Position numbers and translations under genes: made by a program. 64,000 bases of DNA. It comes from Desulfatiglandales bacterium (GTDB taxonomy: Bacteria > Desulfobacterota > DSM-4660 > Desulfatiglandales > Desulfatiglandaceae). The notes beneath the pieces were generated by a model. The model ran no database searches and was not told the DNA's origin. It saw only the letters and a program-made list of their open reading frames with translations. The stretch is taken from positions 2,304,001-2,368,000 of the forward strand of contig OY759599.1 of the NCBI GenBank assembly GCA_963662465.1. Reading direction: 5' to 3'. Shown here piece after piece: positions 56,053-64,000 of the stretch. Position 1 is the stretch's first letter; every line of letters starts with the position of its first letter.

Positions 56053-57215
56053 TATTTCTTTTCTTCACCCGACAAGGGAATATCCACAACCTCAGCTTCC
56101 ACAACGGTTCCATCTTTCACTTTCTGCAACCCTTCATACACCACCTTTTCCCCCGCTTTCAACCCTTCCCGAATCAGCCAGAAGGATTCGATTTTGGGTC
56201 CCGCCTTGACTTCTTTGGCCTGAATTTTATTTTCAGCGCCCACCACATAAACACTGAAGGTTCCCTGAAGCTCCATTACGCACCGCTGAGGGATTAAAAT
56301 ACCCTCCTTTACCACCTCGACCTCCGCCCTCACCTTGGCAAACTGACCCGGGCGAAGCAGTTCATCGGGATTGGGAAAAGAGGCCTGGATCAGAAGGGCG
56401 CCGGTGCCGGGATCCACCTCCCGGTTAACGAAATCCCCCTTCCCCCTGTGGGCATAAACGGAACCATCGGACAAAATCAATTCAAGATCAGCTTTTTCCG
56501 TATTATCGACCTTACCGGCATCGACATCCGCCATATGGCGCCGCATGAACATCAGGTACTGGGATTCCGTAATAAAAAACTGCACCAGCACCGTATCAAT
56601 GCGAGAAACCATATTCAGAATGATGGGACTCGGCGATCGCCCTACAAAATCTCCCACCTTGGCTTTTGTTTTACCGATAATCCCGGATATGGGAGAATAA
56701 ATCTTGGTATATCCCAATTGAATGTTTGCGGCCCGGAGATTGGCTTTTGCCGCCTTAACCGACGAGATGCCAACCTCGTATGTGGCCACGGCAGAATCCA
56801 GATCGCTCTGACTGACCGCTTTTTCCTCAGCCAGCGGCTTAATCCGGTTCAGATAGGTCTCCGCCTCGGTTTTAACCGTTTCAGCGCCGGCAACGCCGCT
56901 CATCTTGGCCGCCACATCCGCTTCGAACTGCTGGCTTTCCAGGGTGTAGAGCAGCATCCCCTTCTTTACCGGAGATCCCTCTTCAAAATGGATGCCCTCC
57001 AGATAGCCCTCCACCCGTGCCGAAATGGCAATGTCCTTAAATCCATAAACCTGGCCCACAAATTCCTGGTAGATGGGCACGTCACTGGCTTCAGTCTGGT
57101 ACACGACCACTTTCGGGGGGGGTGGTGGGGCTTGTTCCGCTTCCTCCTTAATAACACATGAAAGCAGGCCAATGAACAGAATACATAGAAAACTCAGTTC
57201 TACATTTTTTTTCAT
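56052..57215 (-). CDS. RND efflux periplasmic adaptor (MFP)
   Basis: Lipobox LLSC, ARVEGYL, IYSPISG, LRPGQF. Confidence 0.93.
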   Translation of the reverse strand: MKKNVELSFLCILFIGLLSCVIKEEAEQAPPPPPKVVVYQTEASDVPIYQEFVGQVYGFKDIAISARVEGYLEGIHFEEGSPVKKGMLLYTLESQQFEADVAAKMSGVAGAETVKTEAETYLNRIKPLAEEKAVSQSDLDSAVATYEVGISSVKAAKANLRAANIQLGYTKIYSPISGIIGKTKAKVGDFVGRSPSPIILNMVSRIDTVLVQFFITESQYLMFMRRHMADVDAGKVDNTEKADLELILSDGSVYAHRGKGDFVNREVDPGTGALLIQASFPNPDELLRPGQFAKVRAEVEVVKEGILIPQRCVMELQGTFSVYVVGAENKIQAKEVKAGPKIESFWLIREGLKAGEKVVYEGLQKVKDGTVVEAEVVDIPLSGEEKK

Positions 57216-57341
57216 TTTATTCGTCTTCTCGGTTTGAATAAGGATATGAGGTGCGAATCTTCATTTTGGAAAAAAGCGTCGATATCTATTTTTTCGTTTC
57301 ATTAATATCGTAGTATCTGGTAATTTACCAGGAAAAATTCA

Positions 57342-57482
57342 CAGCAATTCTCATTATGCCCATAGTGTGGGAAAGACATACCTTTTTACAGGCATTTTCG
57401 ACCCAAAAGTGTCAACATTGACCTCGTTTACTACCGGAAGTGGAGAGTTTTCCCATCGCAAAGTCCAAAATGAGAATTGCTG
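57342..57482. mobile_element. MITE (141 bp) with 14-bp perfect TIRs and 9-bp target-site duplication
   Basis: CAGCAATTCTCATT ... AATGAGAATTGCTG, flanked on both sides by AAAAATTCA (57333-57341 and 57483-57491). Confidence 0.8.
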
Positions 57483-57660
57483 AAAAATTCAGCATCCTTC
57501 ATTTTTCGGTTTACACTTTTGCCCCTATCTACCTCGCTTCCAAGCATGAAAACTCCCCTGTGGAACGGCGTACCGTCGCGACAGCTGTTGCCGTAACCTT
57601 GTCGCCCGACTTGCCAAACCCGGCAGGTTTTAAAAGAAAGGACGACAGGGGGACTTGCGC

Positions 57661-58018
57661 CTCATTGAAAGAACCGCCATAAGTAACGTCCAAGCGCGAG
57701 ATAAAGACCTCAACGATTTCATGCCCAACAGAAAAGATGTCCGGAATCCAAGGGCAGAGTACATGCTGAAAGCTTTCGAATATGTGGTGCAAGGCCAAAT
57801 GGTGCTCCCTGACGGTAAAACATGCGGGTTTGTTTCTGAATTGAAACCGCTTCAAAGGGATATCCTGAAGATTCTGGAAATACCTTCACGCTGTTTTTCT
57901 TACGAATACCTCTTTGAAGCCGGGTGACCCATGAAAATCAAACTCATTCCAGCAGTGGTGCAAAAAAAGGTAAAAGCAAAAATTGGAAAACAACTTTTTT
58001 AAAAGAGCGAAATGTGAG
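57661..58018 (+). mobile_element. IS1634-like transposase C-terminal remnant with right end
   Basis: LIERT...MPNRK..RNPRAEYMLKAF...LKPLQRDILKILEIP resembles IS1634-family C-termini; GCGAAATGTGAG end-like sequence at 58007-58018. Confidence 0.65.
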
Positions 58019-58125
58019 TAAAATCAAAGCCATTTTTTGTAATATGCCTGAAATCGCTTCTGAACAGGTTTCCGATCCAGAAAATGCTGAAAACGCGCTA
58101 TGATGTCTGGCGGAACTGGAATCAT
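58019..58125 (-). pseudogene. intI: N-terminal stub of a long-form integron integrase
   Basis: MIPVPPDIIARFQHFLDRKPVQKRFQAYYKKWL*FY resembles the N-terminal extension (YxKWLRYYLDFC) of deltaproteobacterial integron integrases; divergent from the cassette array; cut at the IS end. Confidence 0.55.
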
Positions 58126-58272
58126 GATATGCCCGCCTATTGGACGTTCAATATTACAAATACGCGTATTATACATATCGCAGAAACCATGCCATTGATC
58201 TTCGTCAATAATGATTTCATGCCGGCTTTCAACCTGCAAATCATAATGAGCCTCAGAGAAAAAGCAGGACAT

Positions 58273-58487
58273 TAGCAATTCTCATTTTGGAATTTCGATT
58301 TCCTCATCCTGGCTCACACGCTCTATGTTGAACCCGCCTCTGGACGATCTGCGTCCTAAACCATGAATATACCATATTTAAAACAGTTTTTTTCGAGTTT
58401 GCCGCCAGACGCGGAGCGTCCAAAAACTATTCCCACATTAGAACGTATGAACGAGAGCGAAAACCAAGTCCCTAATGAGAATCGCTA
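58273..58487. mobile_element. Second MITE-like element of the same TIR family, containing a degenerate REP doublet
   Basis: TAGCAATTCTCATT ... AATGAGAATCGCTA; internal GGACGATCTGCGTC / GACGCGGAGCGTCC inverted pair; no TSD seen. Confidence 0.6.
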
Positions 58488-58609
58488 ATAAAATATTTAG
58501 CAGAATATAAAAATATTGCCCTTGCGTTTTTGCCTCAAATAATTTACAAAATATAAATTTCAGAGGGAGATTGGTTCGATTTTGTCGGATAACATGCGGG
58601 AACGGATAT

Positions 58610-58645
58610 TTGATGACAAAAAAACTGTATAATCATTGGTTGAAC
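58610..58645 (+). other. Candidate attI site
   Basis: GTATAAT-CATTG-GTTGAAC; R box GTTGAAC (58639-58645) nearly complements R'' GATCAAC of the next attC; lies between intI stub and first attC. Confidence 0.5.
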
Positions 58646-58850: not shown

Positions 58851-58904
58851 TAAGCCGCTAAATGACTTGACCCACCGATATTGCCAAATGAAAGGAGAAA
58901 AGCT

Positions 58905-59381
58905 ATGATTAAAATGAATAAAATTATGGTAATTTGTATGGCTCTTCTGGCATTCTTTTTAACAGAAACTTTTTGCCTCGCTGATTCCAAAGAAAACGGT
59001 TCCACCGGAGGCTATGTTGCATATAATAACGGTATTGTAAAAGACAACAATACCGGCCTCGAATGGCGGGTAGGCCCTGACAAAGACACTACCTGGGAGG
59101 AAGCCAAGTCATGGGTGGAAAGCCTGAATGCTTCAGAAGGCTGGCGTTTACCAAAAATAGTAGAAGTTGAGGGGCTTTACAAAGAGGGGTTGGGAGAGCG
59201 AAATATGACGCCACTTTTGAAGATGAACGGTTGGTGGGTATGGTCAAAGGATTTCAAGAAATCTTCAGAATATAACCTTGCTTGGAACTTCAGCTTCTTT
59301 TTTGGGAATGGACGCTGGAATTGCCCCAGAGAAGCTGCTGATCGCAGAGCCTTTGCGGTTCGTTCTGCACGAAACCAATAA
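58905..59381 (+). CDS. Exported DUF1566 (Lcl C-terminal domain) protein, cassette gene
   Basis: Signal peptide; VKDNNTGLEW, TWEEAKSW, GWRLP..E, WVWS, AFAVR; AAGGAG RBS. Confidence 0.85.
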   Translation: MIKMNKIMVICMALLAFFLTETFCLADSKENGSTGGYVAYNNGIVKDNNTGLEWRVGPDKDTTWEEAKSWVESLNASEGWRLPKIVEVEGLYKEGLGERNMTPLLKMNGWWVWSKDFKKSSEYNLAWNFSFFFGNGRWNCPREAADRRAFAVRSARNQ

Positions 59382-59429: not shown

Positions 59430-59753
59430 ATGAAGAAATGGACAGTTCAGGATCGGTACGAGAATTCTATCTACTTCACCGAAGAACGCTGGCAGCACAT
59501 CCTTGAATCAAGGCCTGAATTGGAACCATTTTTTGAGCAATTTTTGGAGACCATTCGCACAGGACGTAGGAAGCAGGATACACTATTGCTTAATGAGTAT
59601 AGGTACTTCAAGCAGTTTGATGAATTAGAGCCAGACAATAACCATCTGGTAGTTATCGTTATTTTCAAGACGAATCTTGACGAACATGGCAAATATACCC
59701 CTAACAATTTTGTAGTTACCGGGTGGGCGAAATACATTCAACCCAAAAGGTGA
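59430..59753 (+). CDS. Putative RelE/BECR-fold toxin (DUF4258-like)
   Basis: IYFTEERWQHI...PEL and FVVTGW motifs; immediately upstream of a DUF2283 gene. Confidence 0.6.
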   Translation: MKKWTVQDRYENSIYFTEERWQHILESRPELEPFFEQFLETIRTGRRKQDTLLLNEYRYFKQFDELEPDNNHLVVIVIFKTNLDEHGKYTPNNFVVTGWAKYIQPKR

Positions 59754-59757
59754 ATCT

Positions 59758-60174
59758 ATGGACAAAACATCGTTTTTGAATACAGAGGTGAAAGCTGCAG
59801 ATGGGACGCATGTTCGTATGGTCTACGACCAAGAGGCTGATATCCTGGAAATCTTTTTCGGACAGAATGAGGCGGGAACAGGAGTGGAATTAACAGAACA
59901 TATCCTCTTGCGCGTTAATTTACAGACGCGCCGACCGATCAGTGTGACGGTACTTCATTTTTCTATCTTGTCTGAACATACGGAATATGGTCCTCGCAGC
60001 TTTGCCCTAGATAGACTAAATGAGCTTCCAGAAGCCTTACGGGATTTAGTGCTGCATGTTCTAAATTCTATGCCGGTACGGCAGTTCCTGAAAACCACAC
60101 ATTACCAGGCATCACCCACAGAGCAAATTCCGGTCACTTATGTGGAATCGCAGCCAGCCCTGAATGCAGCCTGA
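59758..60174 (+). CDS. DUF2283-family protein, putative antitoxin
   Basis: VYDQEADILEIFF motif. Confidence 0.7.
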   Translation: MDKTSFLNTEVKAADGTHVRMVYDQEADILEIFFGQNEAGTGVELTEHILLRVNLQTRRPISVTVLHFSILSEHTEYGPRSFALDRLNELPEALRDLVLHVLNSMPVRQFLKTTHYQASPTEQIPVTYVESQPALNAA

Positions 60175-60199
60175 TATTGCGTCAATTCGTGAAGGGACC

Positions 60200-60284
60200 G
60201 CCCAACCAAACGCTTCAGCGGCCCCCTGAAAGTCTGGCGGTTCTGGCGGGGGCCAGTGGAGGGGCCGCTGAGCTTGTCGTTAGC
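60200..60284 (+). other. attC site 2, R' box interrupted by group II intron
   Basis: R'' GCCCAAC (exact complement of GTTGGGC at 58844), L'' GCTTCAGC-GGCCCC, L' GGGGCC-GCTGAGC, R' GTTAGC then intron GTGCG. Confidence 0.85.
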
Positions 60285-62562
60285 GTGCGACGTGATGTCG
60301 CGTAAGTAGCTGTTTTATATATTGATATAAACCATATAACAAAACCCTGTTTTCTGCAACAGGCATTCTACCGGGACATGCGTCCGGAGTAATCCGGGGG
60401 TGTGAAGCTCTCGGGACAATGAAGCCCGCGGAATTTTCCGGAAGAGGGAACCGTGAGGGGACCTCAACTCTGCAAGCATCATGCGGTGAGGGAGCTAGAA
60501 TTGAGCAGTACGGTTAACACATGTGAATCGCTGCAACGTCGTCACGAAAACAAGCCTAAGATGCTGAAAGGCTTGGACCAAAAGGTACGTGGCCAGGAAC
60601 GGAGGCTGCGAACTCCTCCGTCGCAGATGTCGTGCCACCGGCGTAGGGGCGGAACCTAACCTGCTCGGGTACTTACGCGGAACATGGTAAGCCCGTAATC
60701 CTCCCCACGGGGAAAGCGAACCGCAAGGTGAGCCCATGGGGTTGCGGGTAGAGGATGTCAGAAAAAGCGAATGCTCCGTTGTAATGATGGGGATACGGAT
60801 TGATGGTAATCACCGACATGATCCGGCTCGAAAGAGAGCAGACTTCTGACCGGTGTTCCATTGCGAGATAATCTGTAGAATCTTCAAACAGGGGAAAGCA
60901 GCCAGTGAAACGGGCGAATGACGGTGGCCGTTCTGGCGACTGGTGCACCTTTGGACGGAACAAACTGGTGGAAATCCATAAACTGGAAAACCGCCGGGGA
61001 GCATGTTAGAAGACTGCAGGTGCGTATCGCAAAGGCTGTGAAGGAAAAGCGATGGGGAAAAGTCAAGGTGATACAGTGGCTTTTGACTCATTCGTTTTAT
61101 GCCAAGTTGTTGGCTATCAAGCGCGTTACTTCCAACCGGGGTAAACGCACACCGGGAGTGGATAAAGTCATATGGTCCACCCACATTGACAAAATGCAAG
61201 CGGTAAACGACCTGCGCCGAAGAGCCTACCGACCCAAACCGCTGCGCCGAATTTACATACCCAAGAAAAACGGCAAGAAACGCCCATTGGGCATTCCCAC
61301 AATGAAGGACAGAGCCATGCAGGCATTGTACAAATTGGCGCTTGATCCGGTGGCGGAAACCACCGCCGATCCGAACTCTTACGGGTTCAGACCCTATCGG
61401 GGATGTGCGGATGCCATCGGTCAGTGTTTTATTTCTCTGGCCAAGCGCTACTCACCCGTATGGATTCTGGAGGGAGATATAAAGGCCTGTTTTGATGAAA
61501 TCAGCATCATTTTATCCAAAATAAACCAAGGATGCTGCATCGTTTAATTGGATTTCAAGTTTGAGATACCCGTGATATTATGCAAAGTAAACTCAGTGAA
61601 GGTGTTGGAAATCTGGTAGCTTTAGCGGTTTACTTTGCATAATCGGCAACTTGGCATAAGGCGGGATTATCTCTCCAACATTGGCTAAGATGGTCCTGGA
61701 TGGTCTGGAAGCGGCAGCCAAAAGCACCGCCCCGATAAGAATTCAGGGAAATATACGGTCCAAGATAAACGTAATCCGCTACGCTGATGATTTTATCATC
61801 ACCGGGAATTCCAGAGAGATGCTAAATGAGATCAAGCTGGAAATTGAAGCATTTATGGAGCGAAGAGGTCTTTCGCTTTCAGCGGAAAAGACGTTGATCA
61901 CAAGGATAGAAGAAGGATTTGATTTTCTCGGACAAAGTTCACGCAAATACGGAGGAAAACTTTTGATAAAGCCCTCTCGCAAAAACGTGAAAGCCTTTTT
62001 AGGCAATATCCGGAAAACAATCCGAAAGCATGCGGCATCAAGAGCCGACATTCTGATTAAAGTACTCAATCCCAAAATCAGGGGGTGGGCCAATTACCAC
62101 AGGCATGTGGTTTCCGGTAGAACTTTCGGGCTTGTAGATCACCGTATCTACAGCTATATTTGGCAATGGATGAGGAGGAAACATTCGGGCAAGAGTAAGA
62201 GTTGGCTGATGGATAAATACTGGTCAAAAGGATCTCGCCCGTGGTCCTTTTCAGCGGTGATCAAGGACGGCTATGCGAAATCCGCCAGAATTGAACTTGA
62301 GAAGGCTTACGACGTCAAGATAAAACGCCATGTCAAAATTCGAGGGGATGCGAACCCCTTCGATCCGAAATATGAACAATATTTCAGGAAACGATATGCC
62401 CAACGCAGTCAGCAGAAGGCAGACAGGCGTAAAGAGCATAAAACGTCACAACCGGGTAGCCCCGAAAGGGCTTGCCTTTGGAATGCTTGAGCCGTGTGCG
62501 TTTAACGGCGCACGCACGGTTCTTAGCGGGGGGCGCTGGGTAACCGGCGTTCCTACCGTGAG
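60285..62562 (+). mobile_element. Group II intron (IIB, chloroplast-like/CL1-type IEP, no endonuclease domain)
   Basis: 5' GTGCG; domain V GAGCCGTGTGCG...CGCACGCACGGTTC (62489-62522); domain VI hairpin with bulged A near 62555; 3' end uncertain (62562 or 62570). Confidence 0.88.
60918..62490 (+). pseudogene. ltrA: Group II intron reverse transcriptase/maturase, disrupted between RT motifs 3 and 4
   Basis: Fragment 1: WKSINW..VRRLQVRIAKA, TPGVD, RPLGIPT, EGDIKACFD; fragment 2 from 61660: GGIISP, RYADDF, FDFLG, LNPKIRGWANY; about 155 bp of unrelated sequence with stops between them. Confidence 0.88.
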
Positions 62563-62642
62563 AGCTCGACGAGACCAACTGGGGCGGCAGGTGGGCTTTC
62601 GAGCTTTTCAGGAACAACTTCAACGAAAGGGAGGACCTATTT

Positions 62643-64000
62643 ATGGAAAACGTGCATTACTTTAAACGATACATGGTTTTAATCGGGGTTTTTTGTTTGC
62701 TGTTTTCATGCTCTTCAGGCAGTGACACACCGTCTCCTGAACCCAAAACATGGTCTTATGTGAATCTTCATCCGGAAGGTCAATGCTGGTACTCAATGGG
62801 AAGGGCCCTTAACAATGGAAAAATAGGAGGCACGATAGTTTATAAACAGCCCCCTAAAGGTAAATTGCATCATGCAGCCTATTGGTCGTCGATCTCAGCA
62901 GGCAGCTTTCTTGAGTTAGGAGGAGGTTATTACTATAGTACACCCTCAGACATTTTTTCTCTGAATGATGCATGGAAAGTTGGATATTATATTCAATATG
63001 GCGCATTCTGGCCTAATAACACGTATCCCCCCGAAATTGTACCAAATTTTATGAAGGTCAGTTCAATGAGCAATATCATGGGGGTAAGCGGCAACTGGGC
63101 TGTGGGAGATGCCTTTACCGTTTACGATCAGGGTAAGGCGGCATTGTGGCATCTTACTGATGACAATACAGCTGTCGGCCATGATCTTACCCCTGCGGAG
63201 ATAAAGGAGGTGGACCTTGCGACGGCCTGGGCCATGGCCATAGACGGCACAACGGAACAAGATCCGGGGGTCGTTGTAGGCGGAGCCTCCATATCCCGCA
63301 AAAGTATAGCAATTCTTTGGAAAAACATATCTCCGAATGGAGAGGATACTACTTTTGACTATGTCAATCTCCATCCGTCCAACGATTACCAGGCATCCGA
63401 ATGCTGGGCTGTATATGGCAATAAACAGGGCGGATATGTTCAAGAATGGGGGGAGGCCGACGAGGACTCAGGATATCGCGCTGCTTTATGGGGCGAGACA
63501 CCTGAAAGTTTTGAAAATCTGCATCCCGATATAGAGGGTGTCGAAAATTCGAGGATACGAGGGATGGCGGATGGAATTCAGGTCGGAGATATATTCTATG
63601 GTGATGATATAAACCAAGATCCGCCGAGTCATGCCTTTCTGTGGTTTGGCGCTGCAGACGATTATTTTGATCTGCACACTGTTCTTCCATACAATTATTC
63701 TTCCTCTACTGCCTTGGGTGTCGAAAAAATCAATGGTGATATTCATGTCGTCGGATATGCCATTAATGATGACGCCGATGTGGGGGGAAGACAGGAGGCC
63801 ATGGTCTGGATCTATTCGGCTTCAAAACCGGATGTCCTGTCGGGAAGCAACTGGATACAGGCAACCGAATCTGCAGAATTTTCCGCGCGCCAGGATTTTA
63901 CAACCCTGGTCTTTGATGGTAAATTGTGGCTCATTGGCGGATCGTATGGCTGGACGACCTATAGTGATGTCTGGTGTTCAAGTGATGGCGTGACGTGGAC
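62643..64000 (+). CDS. Lipoprotein with beta-propeller-like repeats and Kelch-like C-terminal repeat (3'-truncated by window; absent from ORF track)
   Basis: GGAGG RBS; MENVHYFKRYMVLIGVFCLLFS-C lipobox; recurring A.LW...(N/D)LHP units; FDGKLWLIGG...DVWCSSDGVTW in the same frame at the window end. Confidence 0.8.
   Translation, partial: MENVHYFKRYMVLIGVFCLLFSCSSGSDTPSPEPKTWSYVNLHPEGQCWYSMGRALNNGKIGGTIVYKQPPKGKLHHAAYWSSISAGSFLELGGGYYYSTPSDIFSLNDAWKVGYYIQYGAFWPNNTYPPEIVPNFMKVSSMSNIMGVSGNWAVGDAFTVYDQGKAALWHLTDDNTAVGHDLTPAEIKEVDLATAWAMAIDGTTEQDPGVVVGGASISRKSIAILWKNISPNGEDTTFDYVNLHPSNDYQASECWAVYGNKQGGYVQEWGEADEDSGYRAALWGETPESFENLHPDIEGVENSRIRGMADGIQVGDIFYGDDINQDPPSHAFLWFGAADDYFDLHTVLPYNYSSSTALGVEKINGDIHVVGYAINDDADVGGRQEAMVWIYSASKPDVLSGSNWIQATESAEFSARQDFTTLVFDGKLWLIGGSYGWTTYSDVWCSSDGVTW

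Follow-up and report, generated by a model that had tools for sequence, protein, structure and literature searches.

An apparently dead chloroplast-like group II intron in an integron attC site, and the probable retrohoming of its family into R' boxes

The 64,000-nucleotide stretch of the Desulfatiglandales bacterium genome analyzed here (the window; assembly GCA_963662465.1, contig OY759599.1, positions 2,304,001 to 2,368,000) carries a defective 2278-nt copy of a group II intron (copy c1, 60285..62562, + strand), which begins within the R' box of an integron attC site. Its body is of the chloroplast-like (CL), IIB1 type. Group IIC introns recognize a hairpin together with a short intron-binding site 1 (IBS1). 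Introns of the IIC-attC group have been described as inserted in the bottom strand, in the orientation opposite to that of the cassettes (PMC3001079), and the accessible text of a 2015 review assigns attC homing to class C only (PMC4424553). The analyses described below indicated that 60285-62562 is very probably a dead copy of an endonuclease (En)-less CL family of IIB1 type, which retrohomes in sense orientation into integron sites, between bases 6 and 7 of the R' box (GTTNNN/N) of attC and apparently of attI as well. Computed support for this interpretation consisted of a fixed insertion position, a loop of exon-binding site 1 (EBS1) in which AAC faces an invariant GTT, and signs of recent movement.

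Read directly in the window sequence, GTTAGC at 60279-60284 is followed by the intron 5' end, GTGCG, from 60285 onward (GTGCGACG). The attC site of the upstream cassette (60200..60284, top strand, +) was recognized from the sequence, from DNA folds of both strands and with nhmmer (E 9.5e-20). It consists of R'' (GCCCAAC, 60200-60206), an 11-bp stem (60215-60225 with 60261-60271) with an extra unpaired T on its 5' arm, a TTGTC spacer and the R' box; its 3' part, upstream of the intron, reads ...GAGCTTGTC-GTTAGC on the cassette coding strand. An R''-L''...L'-R' imperfect palindrome, a GTT core and an extrahelical base, the hallmarks of integron attC anatomy, were thus all present. Cassette open reading frames (ORFs) flanking the intron on both sides were on the + strand, as was the intron, which is therefore sense-oriented. 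Across the genome, a single 8.16-Mb contig, 56 sites of this type were identified with an nhmmer profile made from 37 attC sites that had been selected by regex. Integron integrase genes matching TIGR02249 above its cut-off were located at 3287696(-), 4425408(+), 6792755(+), 4981289(-) and 6133965; those at 3287696, 4425408 and 6792755 were accompanied by attC arrays on the side and strand to be expected.

Eleven copies of the intron (family 1), sharing 94-100% identity, were found in the genome, c1 being 94-98% identical to the other 10. The 5' flank was an attC ending ..GTT[C/G/A]GC in 9 of the 11 copies. Copy c11 followed an attI-type core, ..ACTGGTTCGT (GTTCGT), c5 lay directly 3' of the end of c4, and a twelfth, truncated copy followed GTTCGG. 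Among 55 parsed attC sites, 20 had a sense-oriented intron inserted immediately 3' of R' base 6. Nine of these introns belonged to family 1 and nine, plus one with an irregular junction, to family 2, which comprises 14 copies of ORF-less introns (0.8-1.0 kb, 5' TTGCG) of the same Rfam type as family 1. The remaining site was occupied by family 3, an intron of another RNA type (RF02005, 5' GCGCC) with the same R' box base as its insertion point. Family 3 was present at genome positions 3214560-3217006, 6787916-6785796, 6745351-6743231 and 6375430 (5' sequence GCGCCGAGG), and its intron-encoded protein (IEP) was equidistant from class C, CL and mitochondrial-like (ML) structures (140, 137 and 135 bits). 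One cassette head, CAGACCCGCTGG.., occurred directly after GTTGGA at three attC sites, whereas at two more it lay behind an intron, copy c6 in one case and a family-2 intron in the other; this comparison of empty and filled sites fixed the intron boundaries.

An intact 510-amino-acid ORF was present in 5 of the 11 copies. Copies c4, c9 and c10 were 100% identical, as were c3 and c5, and such identical copies with an intact IEP gene occurred in three different arrays. Since identical copies were found at different loci, the family must have moved recently. Copies c7 and c8, which are 99.4% identical and share an identical insertion in the reverse-transcriptase (RT) gene (discussed below), were located at different sites, on the basis of which RT-dead copies seem to have been moved in trans. 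Introns were also stacked head to tail, two or three at one attC, at genome 3329531-3334800 (locus L059; c4, c5 and a family-2 intron), after c10 and at 6375430; these stacks probably arose by repeated homing into the same retained 5' exon. Cumulative GC skew put the origin of replication at ~5.74 Mb and its terminus at ~1.78 Mb, and 10 of the 11 copies were oriented head-on to replication. A replication-strand bias as a trait of the intron was rejected, as orientation is dictated by the arrays (about six), and nothing follows from this count.

A different origin of these copies, in which one old insertion was multiplied and spread mainly as a cassette passenger of the integron integrase, would draw on the geometry of the insertion. 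The crossover point G/TT lies 5 nt upstream of the intron, which would stay with the downstream cassette, and four copies are located at attI, the entry point of new cassettes, without a match to the candidate second intron-binding site (IBS2) discussed below. The 3' flanks argue against this origin. They differ between copies, with three copies abutting introns and eight showing a cassette flank, none of which is repeated, and downstream of the identical copies c4, c9 and c10 the sequence is different in each case, the upstream attC sites differing as well. Moreover, the cassette head CAGACCCGCTGG.. was found both free of any intron and behind introns of family 1 and of family 2, and tandem stacks such as c4/c5/family 2 are expected from repeated homing into a retained 5' exon. 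Spread mainly by cassette carriage was accordingly considered very improbable, and retrohoming of family 1 into the R' box remained the preferred explanation.

Relatives of the intact IEP were sought by scanning one genome per species and, in addition, metagenome contigs. Relatives from five other assemblies (L051, L053/L056, L061, L062 and L064) were all located at attC R' boxes. L051 (85% identity) followed an attC ending ..GAGCTTGTCGTTCGG; L053 and L056 (~80%) followed another type of attC, ending GTTAAT, with an irregular junction in L053; and L061 (85%), L062 (68%) and L064 (55%) followed GTTAAT, GTTCGG and GTTAGC, respectively. At 50-54% identity the picture was mixed: L046/L047 and L065 occupied ordinary sites, and ordinary sequence also surrounded the plasmid-borne relatives L066, L067 and L069. 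In an IEP tree the introns at attC R' boxes clustered (9 of 500 shuffles scored as low), in a tree in which the outgroup branch was very long and L068, without a located 5' end, was scored as not attC. In a separate observation, a contig of a Desulfamplus metagenome-assembled genome contained three sense introns (L048, L050 and L052) inside attC, 10 nt into the L'' arm, with 5' ends at locus positions 898-900. Their IEP was 50% identical and they were of the same Rfam type as the window intron, which suggests that the broad lineage includes another attC homing specificity besides that for the R' box.

The original prediction had cautioned that c1 might represent a single chance insertion. The alternative weighed here was such an insertion next to a hairpin that merely resembles an attC, and the window does lack an integrase gene. 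The junction is, however, common to 9 of the 11 copies and recurs among the relatives from five other assemblies. The hairpin is one of 56 members of its attC family, which form arrays next to five TIGR02249-positive integrase genes, and an attI-type region lies 1.6 kb upstream. The shared junctions, the integrase-associated arrays and the size of the attC family together refuted this alternative, and chance insertion was left with a negligible probability. The close relatives at attC R' boxes likewise bore out the expectation that the 5' flanks of homologues would be integron boxes, with the mixed picture at 50-54% identity as its limit.

How the intron recognizes its target was approached through the EBS1 hairpin. 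In c1 this hairpin, ACGGAGG-CTGCGAACT-CCTCCGT (60599..60621, +), presents GCGAAC (EBS1, 60608-60613), of which five of six bases pair with the first six R' bases, GTTAGC (IBS1, 60279..60284, +). Over 12 related introns, 94% of the cells in the hairpin alignment were paired, both-side changes were seen at 7/7 pairs, and 0/500 shuffles scored as high. The loop followed the pattern YT-NNN-AAC-T, with AAC always opposite GTT, while NNN varied among lineages and often fitted R' positions 4-6. The family-1 loop GCGAAC formed 6/6 pairs at 6 of 10 informative sites (GTTCGC) and 5/6 at the other four, c1 among them. GCTAAC formed 6/6 pairs with GTTAGC in L064 and in one family-2 copy (3322313), and CTCGAAC formed 7/7 pairs with GTTCGAG in family 2b. 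CCTAAC formed 5/6 pairs with GTTCGG in L051 and L062, and the loop of another relative was CTTAAC. Family 1 occupied 5 of 9 GTTCGC attC sites vs 4 of 46 others (Fisher p = 0.0034). Pairing of GCGAAC with the R' box at 5 of 6 positions, and a lineage that targets the GTT core by base pairing, had both been proposed from the window alone. Covariation at all seven stem pairs and the constant AAC:GTT upheld the first proposal, and the nine attC-borne copies, the relatives in five other assemblies and the EBS1 variants upheld the second. The positions given there for GTTAGC, GTGCG, the EBS1 hairpin and its GCGAAC, ACAAGC and GCTTGT all matched the sequence.

With 2851 occurrences of GTTCGC in the genome, EBS1 cannot account for specificity on its own, and a second determinant is needed. 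This determinant could be pairing of a second exon-binding site (EBS2) with GCTTGT, or recognition of attC by protein or DNA shape. The candidate EBS2, ACAAGC (60550..60555, +), is the exact complement of GCTTGT (60272..60277, +; candidate IBS2) and lies mostly within a conserved hairpin whose stem co-varies in relatives. The suggestion that these two sequences pair, likewise made in the original prediction, gained no support. No EBS2/IBS2 covariation was found among the relatives, the IBS2 complement was absent at the exons of L056, L061, L064 and family 2b and at the attI copies, and such complementarity is expected ~0.37 times per intron by chance (an estimate from 5 six-mers x ~300 nt / 4096).

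Several observations weigh against the preferred explanation. The absence of EBS2/IBS2 covariation among relatives means that pairing alone leaves the restriction to attC and attI unexplained. EBS1 pairing is weak in some copies (3/6 and 4/6 in family 2, 4/6 in t441 and 4/6 in L061). Family 3, with its different RNA type, uses the same position, which could point to a shared structural cue. Irregular registers were observed at L053, 2371487, 5886487 and 4983327, copies within one genome are non-independent events, and the IEP tree did not yield a single attC-R' clade, L064 grouping with non-attC introns (SH-aLRT, an approximate likelihood-ratio branch support, 83).

These points bear on an explanation in which, as for IIC introns, the folded attC DNA hairpin or contacts made by the protein mainly determine the site, and pairing contributes little beyond the 3-bp AAC:GTT. 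The constant distance of the insertions from the attC stem favors it, as do the poor pairing at R' positions 4-6 in some sites, the presence of the unrelated family 3 (RF02005) at the same base, the lack of support for EBS2, and the exclusive use of attC and attI sites in a genome with 2851 copies of GTTCGC. Such an explanation is harder to reconcile with the dependence of family-1 occupancy on R' sequence and with the EBS1 variants that fit their own sites at 6/6 or 7/7 positions (L064, 3322313 and family 2b). Four copies at attI-type sites, which lack an attC hairpin, also speak against it, although cassette insertion by the integrase could explain those too. Site choice mainly by hairpin or protein was judged unlikely, while carrying appreciable weight, and retrohoming guided by EBS1 pairing was retained as the preferred interpretation.

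The class of the intron was assessed with the 510-amino-acid protein of an intact sister copy (P0001), which served for all IEP comparisons. P0001 contained RVT_N, RVT_1 and GIIM domains and matched TIGR04416 at 365.8 bits (cut-off 300). An HNH domain was not found in P0001 by a search that did detect it in the positive control, a 56%-identical IEP from an E. coli plasmid. The IEP was ~55% identical to ltrA genes of plasmids, in which RVT_N is present too. Among solved structures, the T.el4h maturase scored 570.7 bits against P0001, LtrA 149.3 and IIC RTs 109.5-120.9. The introns of Thermosynechococcus elongatus were assigned to subclass IIB1 and resemble EcI5 (PMC2882425), and RF02012, which matches domain I of c1, also matched all 8 T.el4h-like relatives tested. 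Because of the score difference (570.7 bits vs 110-121 for IIC) and the shared RF02012 match, the intron was assigned by sequence comparison to the CL/IIB type rather than to IIC, a call made against T.el4h, LtrA and class C references. Consistent with a IIB-type RNA, EBS1 lies in a hairpin of domain I, domain V is 34 nt long and the standard domain VI contains a bulged A; the comparison covered these elements. With respect to the IIC-attC group, both the class of IEP and RNA and the insertion strand differ. The CL-type (IIB) character, the sense orientation in the attC R' box, the CL-type N-terminus and the lack of HNH had each been predicted and were corroborated here by the Rfam matches, the T.el4h score, the + strand ORFs and the Pfam domains; grouping of the RT with IIC, named there as a refuting outcome, was not seen.

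By analogy with what is established for group II introns, the proposed mechanism would begin with splicing of the intron RNA by the IEP from an intact copy, and the resulting ribonucleoprotein would reverse-splice into the top strand of attC. A nascent strand at the replication fork would then prime cDNA synthesis, since an En domain is absent. The G/TT crossover would remain intact, and, owing to its position 5 nt upstream, excision by the integrase would be expected to take the intron along with the downstream cassette. It follows from this geometry that the intron would travel as the head of that cassette, which fits the attI-borne copies. A more far-reaching proposal has two modes, RNA-paired retrohoming into the GTT core followed by integrase-mediated carriage, as a cassette head, to other attC and attI sites and hosts. 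Sense copies joined to attC would then act as recombination bridges that put attC before new genes, and would supply the missing 5' half of the IIC-attC model of cassette genesis. This extension is tentative and, as a whole, rather doubtful.

The closest precedent is UHB.I2, a full-length IIB1/CL1 intron that Sonbol and Siam (2021; Mob DNA 12:8, PMC7923331) reported in sense orientation directly after attC in a soda-lake metagenome, together with two class E fragments. The statement in the original prediction that described attC-targeting introns are class IIC was therefore too narrow. In the accessible text of that study, exon conservation among UHB.I2 homologues is poor and no targeting rule is given. 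Like UHB.I2, the window intron combines an IIB-type RNA, a CL-type En-less IEP, cassette orientation and a position directly after attC (PMC7923331), and the unusual 5' UUGCG of UHB.I2 equals the 5' TTGCG of family 2. Compared by description only, the lineage described here differs from that single instance in its many copies, its fixed R' position and its covarying EBS1 AAC:GTT. A full-text literature search, which lacked most subscription journals, brought up no further account of IIB introns at attC.

With IIC-attC introns such as S.ma.I2, the window intron shares the absence of an En domain and an attC homing site (PMC3001079, PMC4424553). Those introns belong to class C, lie on the bottom strand and are found between a gene and its attC (PMC3001079, PMC4424553), whereas the window intron is CL/IIB and sits in sense orientation on the top strand, where it lies at the R' end and begins 5 nt beyond the crossover. 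The closest solved IEP, T.el4h (structure 6ME0, 570.7 bits), belongs to the TeI3/TeI4 introns of T. elongatus (Mohr et al., 2010; PMC2882425). As described there, these are also IIB1 introns present in many copies, with ORF-less derivatives presumably moved by the IEP of a relative. They likewise show families that differ in EBS, a 5' U variant, nested or stacked introns, and an EBS2 that is difficult to recognize in the fold (PMC2882425). In contrast to the window lineage with its En-less IEP, their targets are ordinary homing sites and the TeI4h IEP has an En domain (PMC2882425).

The body of c1 contains the expected parts of such an intron. The domain I core (60345..60494, +) matched RF02012 (group-II-D1D4-7; 118.3 bits) and domains V and VI (62487-62562, +) matched RF00029 (43.8 bits), both above the gathering score. 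Domain V spans 34 nt (62489..62522, +; RF00029 and sequence). The 3' end was set at 62562 from the end of the RF00029 model; in copy c3, the model end and the actual 3' end are the same. An end at 62570 had been predicted earlier, in conflict with the junction GTTAGC/AGCTC given in the same prediction. The IEP gene is divided over two fragments of 209 and 266/269 amino acids, over which RVT_N, RVT_1 and GIIM are spread (Pfam). The N-terminal part, with RVT_N and the first part of the RT (61505 being the end of ..FDEIS), occupies 60918..61505 (+; Pfam and alignment to intact copies), and the C-terminal part, from GGIISP.. onward, with RT 4-7, maturase X and an HNH-less C-terminal region, occupies 61660..62490 (+; Pfam). 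Comparison with intact copies showed a deletion from ..FDEIS to the middle of an inserted element, by which 36 RT codons were lost. Because these codons were deleted along with part of the element, c1 should be unable to make its own RT, and from its sequence it is taken to be a dead copy that would at best be spliced or moved in trans. The original prediction thus placed the intron and its site correctly, while the broken IEP gene, the remnant within it and a foreign domain VI had been overlooked. By itself c1 adds little and mainly illustrates how such copies decay.

The inserted element resembles a miniature inverted-repeat transposable element (MITE). Its right-hand remnant in c1 (~61506..61657, +), which has a 12-bp inverted repeat (TGCAAAGTAAAC) and replaces the 36 codons, was delimited by comparison with intact copies (107 bp there) and with copies that contain the full 325-bp element; its left junction is ambiguous within 61505-61509. 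The 325-bp element was present at the codons for TPQGG in 6 of the 11 copies, including c1, the other five being intact. It has 8-bp terminal repeats (ATGCAAAG and AAGGCGGG) on both sides, and its insertion site reads ..CAAGGCGGG. In addition to the window locus, it was found at genome positions 292476-292805, 3215916-3216241, 3338476-3338806, 3346612-3346936, 3350296-3350620, 4989421-4989746 and 6842523-6842851. Because all eight loci (8/8) fall at the T-P-Q-G-G codons of RT genes in group II introns, and because these comprise three different RT genes, both orientations and two subtypes that are ~82% alike, the element appears to target a conserved RT sequence. A search for an autonomous partner with the same terminal repeats found none.

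The contigs of four runs (X1, X3, X4 and the RNA run X16) were compared with 60100-62750 for traces of splicing or of an empty site. Both junctions were bridged in X1 and X3 and no contig skipped the intron, a result that gives no verdict on splicing. Between 61505 and 61658, run contigs contained 112 letters instead of the 152 of c1, which corresponds to the intact-RT form of other copies.

The end of c1 is also atypical. Its domain VI (62527..62562, +), with a bulged A at 62555, is nearly identical to that of family 3: ~39/40 bases match domain VI of this RF02005-type intron. All 10 other copies and the relatives L051, L053 and L055 have a different domain VI, ending ..GGCTACTCGAC, and in the standard family-1 form the bulged A is positioned 7 nt before the end of the intron. 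Family 3 is thus the apparent donor, most likely through a deletion within a tandem stack of a family-1 and a family-3 intron. An element inserted after GGTTCTGAGG, as in family-2 copies, was considered as the cause but found no support in a by-eye comparison: its crossover falls inside GGTTCTG, while the c1 junction follows TTAG (62526/62527). As a separate observation, six family-2 copies (3314683, 3322313, 5886487, 6752326, 6379417 and 4983327) have identical sequence after GGTTCTGAGG at the junction of domains V and VI, which indicates a putative inserted element.

The array that contains c1 starts near an intI-proximal region with an attI-type site (58017..58641, +; core GTT near 58634). 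Over 625 bp, it shares ~90% identity with five further places in the genome, two of which adjoin integrase genes (4981289-4982224 and 6845296). In the window, RND efflux genes lie directly upstream of the region. TIGR02249 had no match in the 64-kb window. Because the attI-type region is present and an integrase gene is absent, the array was classified from its sequence as integrase-less, with only an attI-type remnant. A motif, AGCAATTCTCATT, occurs four times, in both orientations, from 57348 to 58486, by this integrase-less attI region (57215-58017 and 58017-58641). The cassette upstream of the attC contains a pair of small genes (59430-59753 and 59758-60174), the second with a weak match to DUF2283, which may form a toxin-antitoxin-like module. 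A protein with an Lcl_C domain is encoded at 58881-59381 in the same cassette, which would then hold three ORFs.

On the other side of the intron, the head of the downstream cassette forms the 3' exon (62563..64000, +), with an ORF from 62643 to beyond 63998 that has a weak, sub-threshold Pfam match to Kelch_1 (19.3 bits vs cut-off 20.1). No other copy of the cassettes flanking c1, which might act as its empty site, was found in the genome. The array continues past the window end, with attC sites at genome 2368792, 2369747 and 2371406. At the last of these (2371406-2371489), a family-2 intron is joined as ..GAGCTTGTCG/TTGCGAC and the six R' bases are absent; recombination between an R' GTT and the G+TT formed at the intron 5' TTGCG would fit this joint.

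This family presents a CL IIB lineage that appears to home to the integron core through ordinary EBS1 pairing, in an orientation and at an attC end opposite to those of class C. The lineage occupies about a third of the attC sites of one genome (20/55), has given rise to riders that lack an ORF or a working RT, and is also present in other Desulfobacterales assemblies and in metagenomes. It thereby makes several questions testable: how an En-less IIB intron finds structured, recombination-prone DNA, whether introns ride cassettes between integrons, and how intron load relates to the expression and shuffling of cassettes in large chromosomal integrons.

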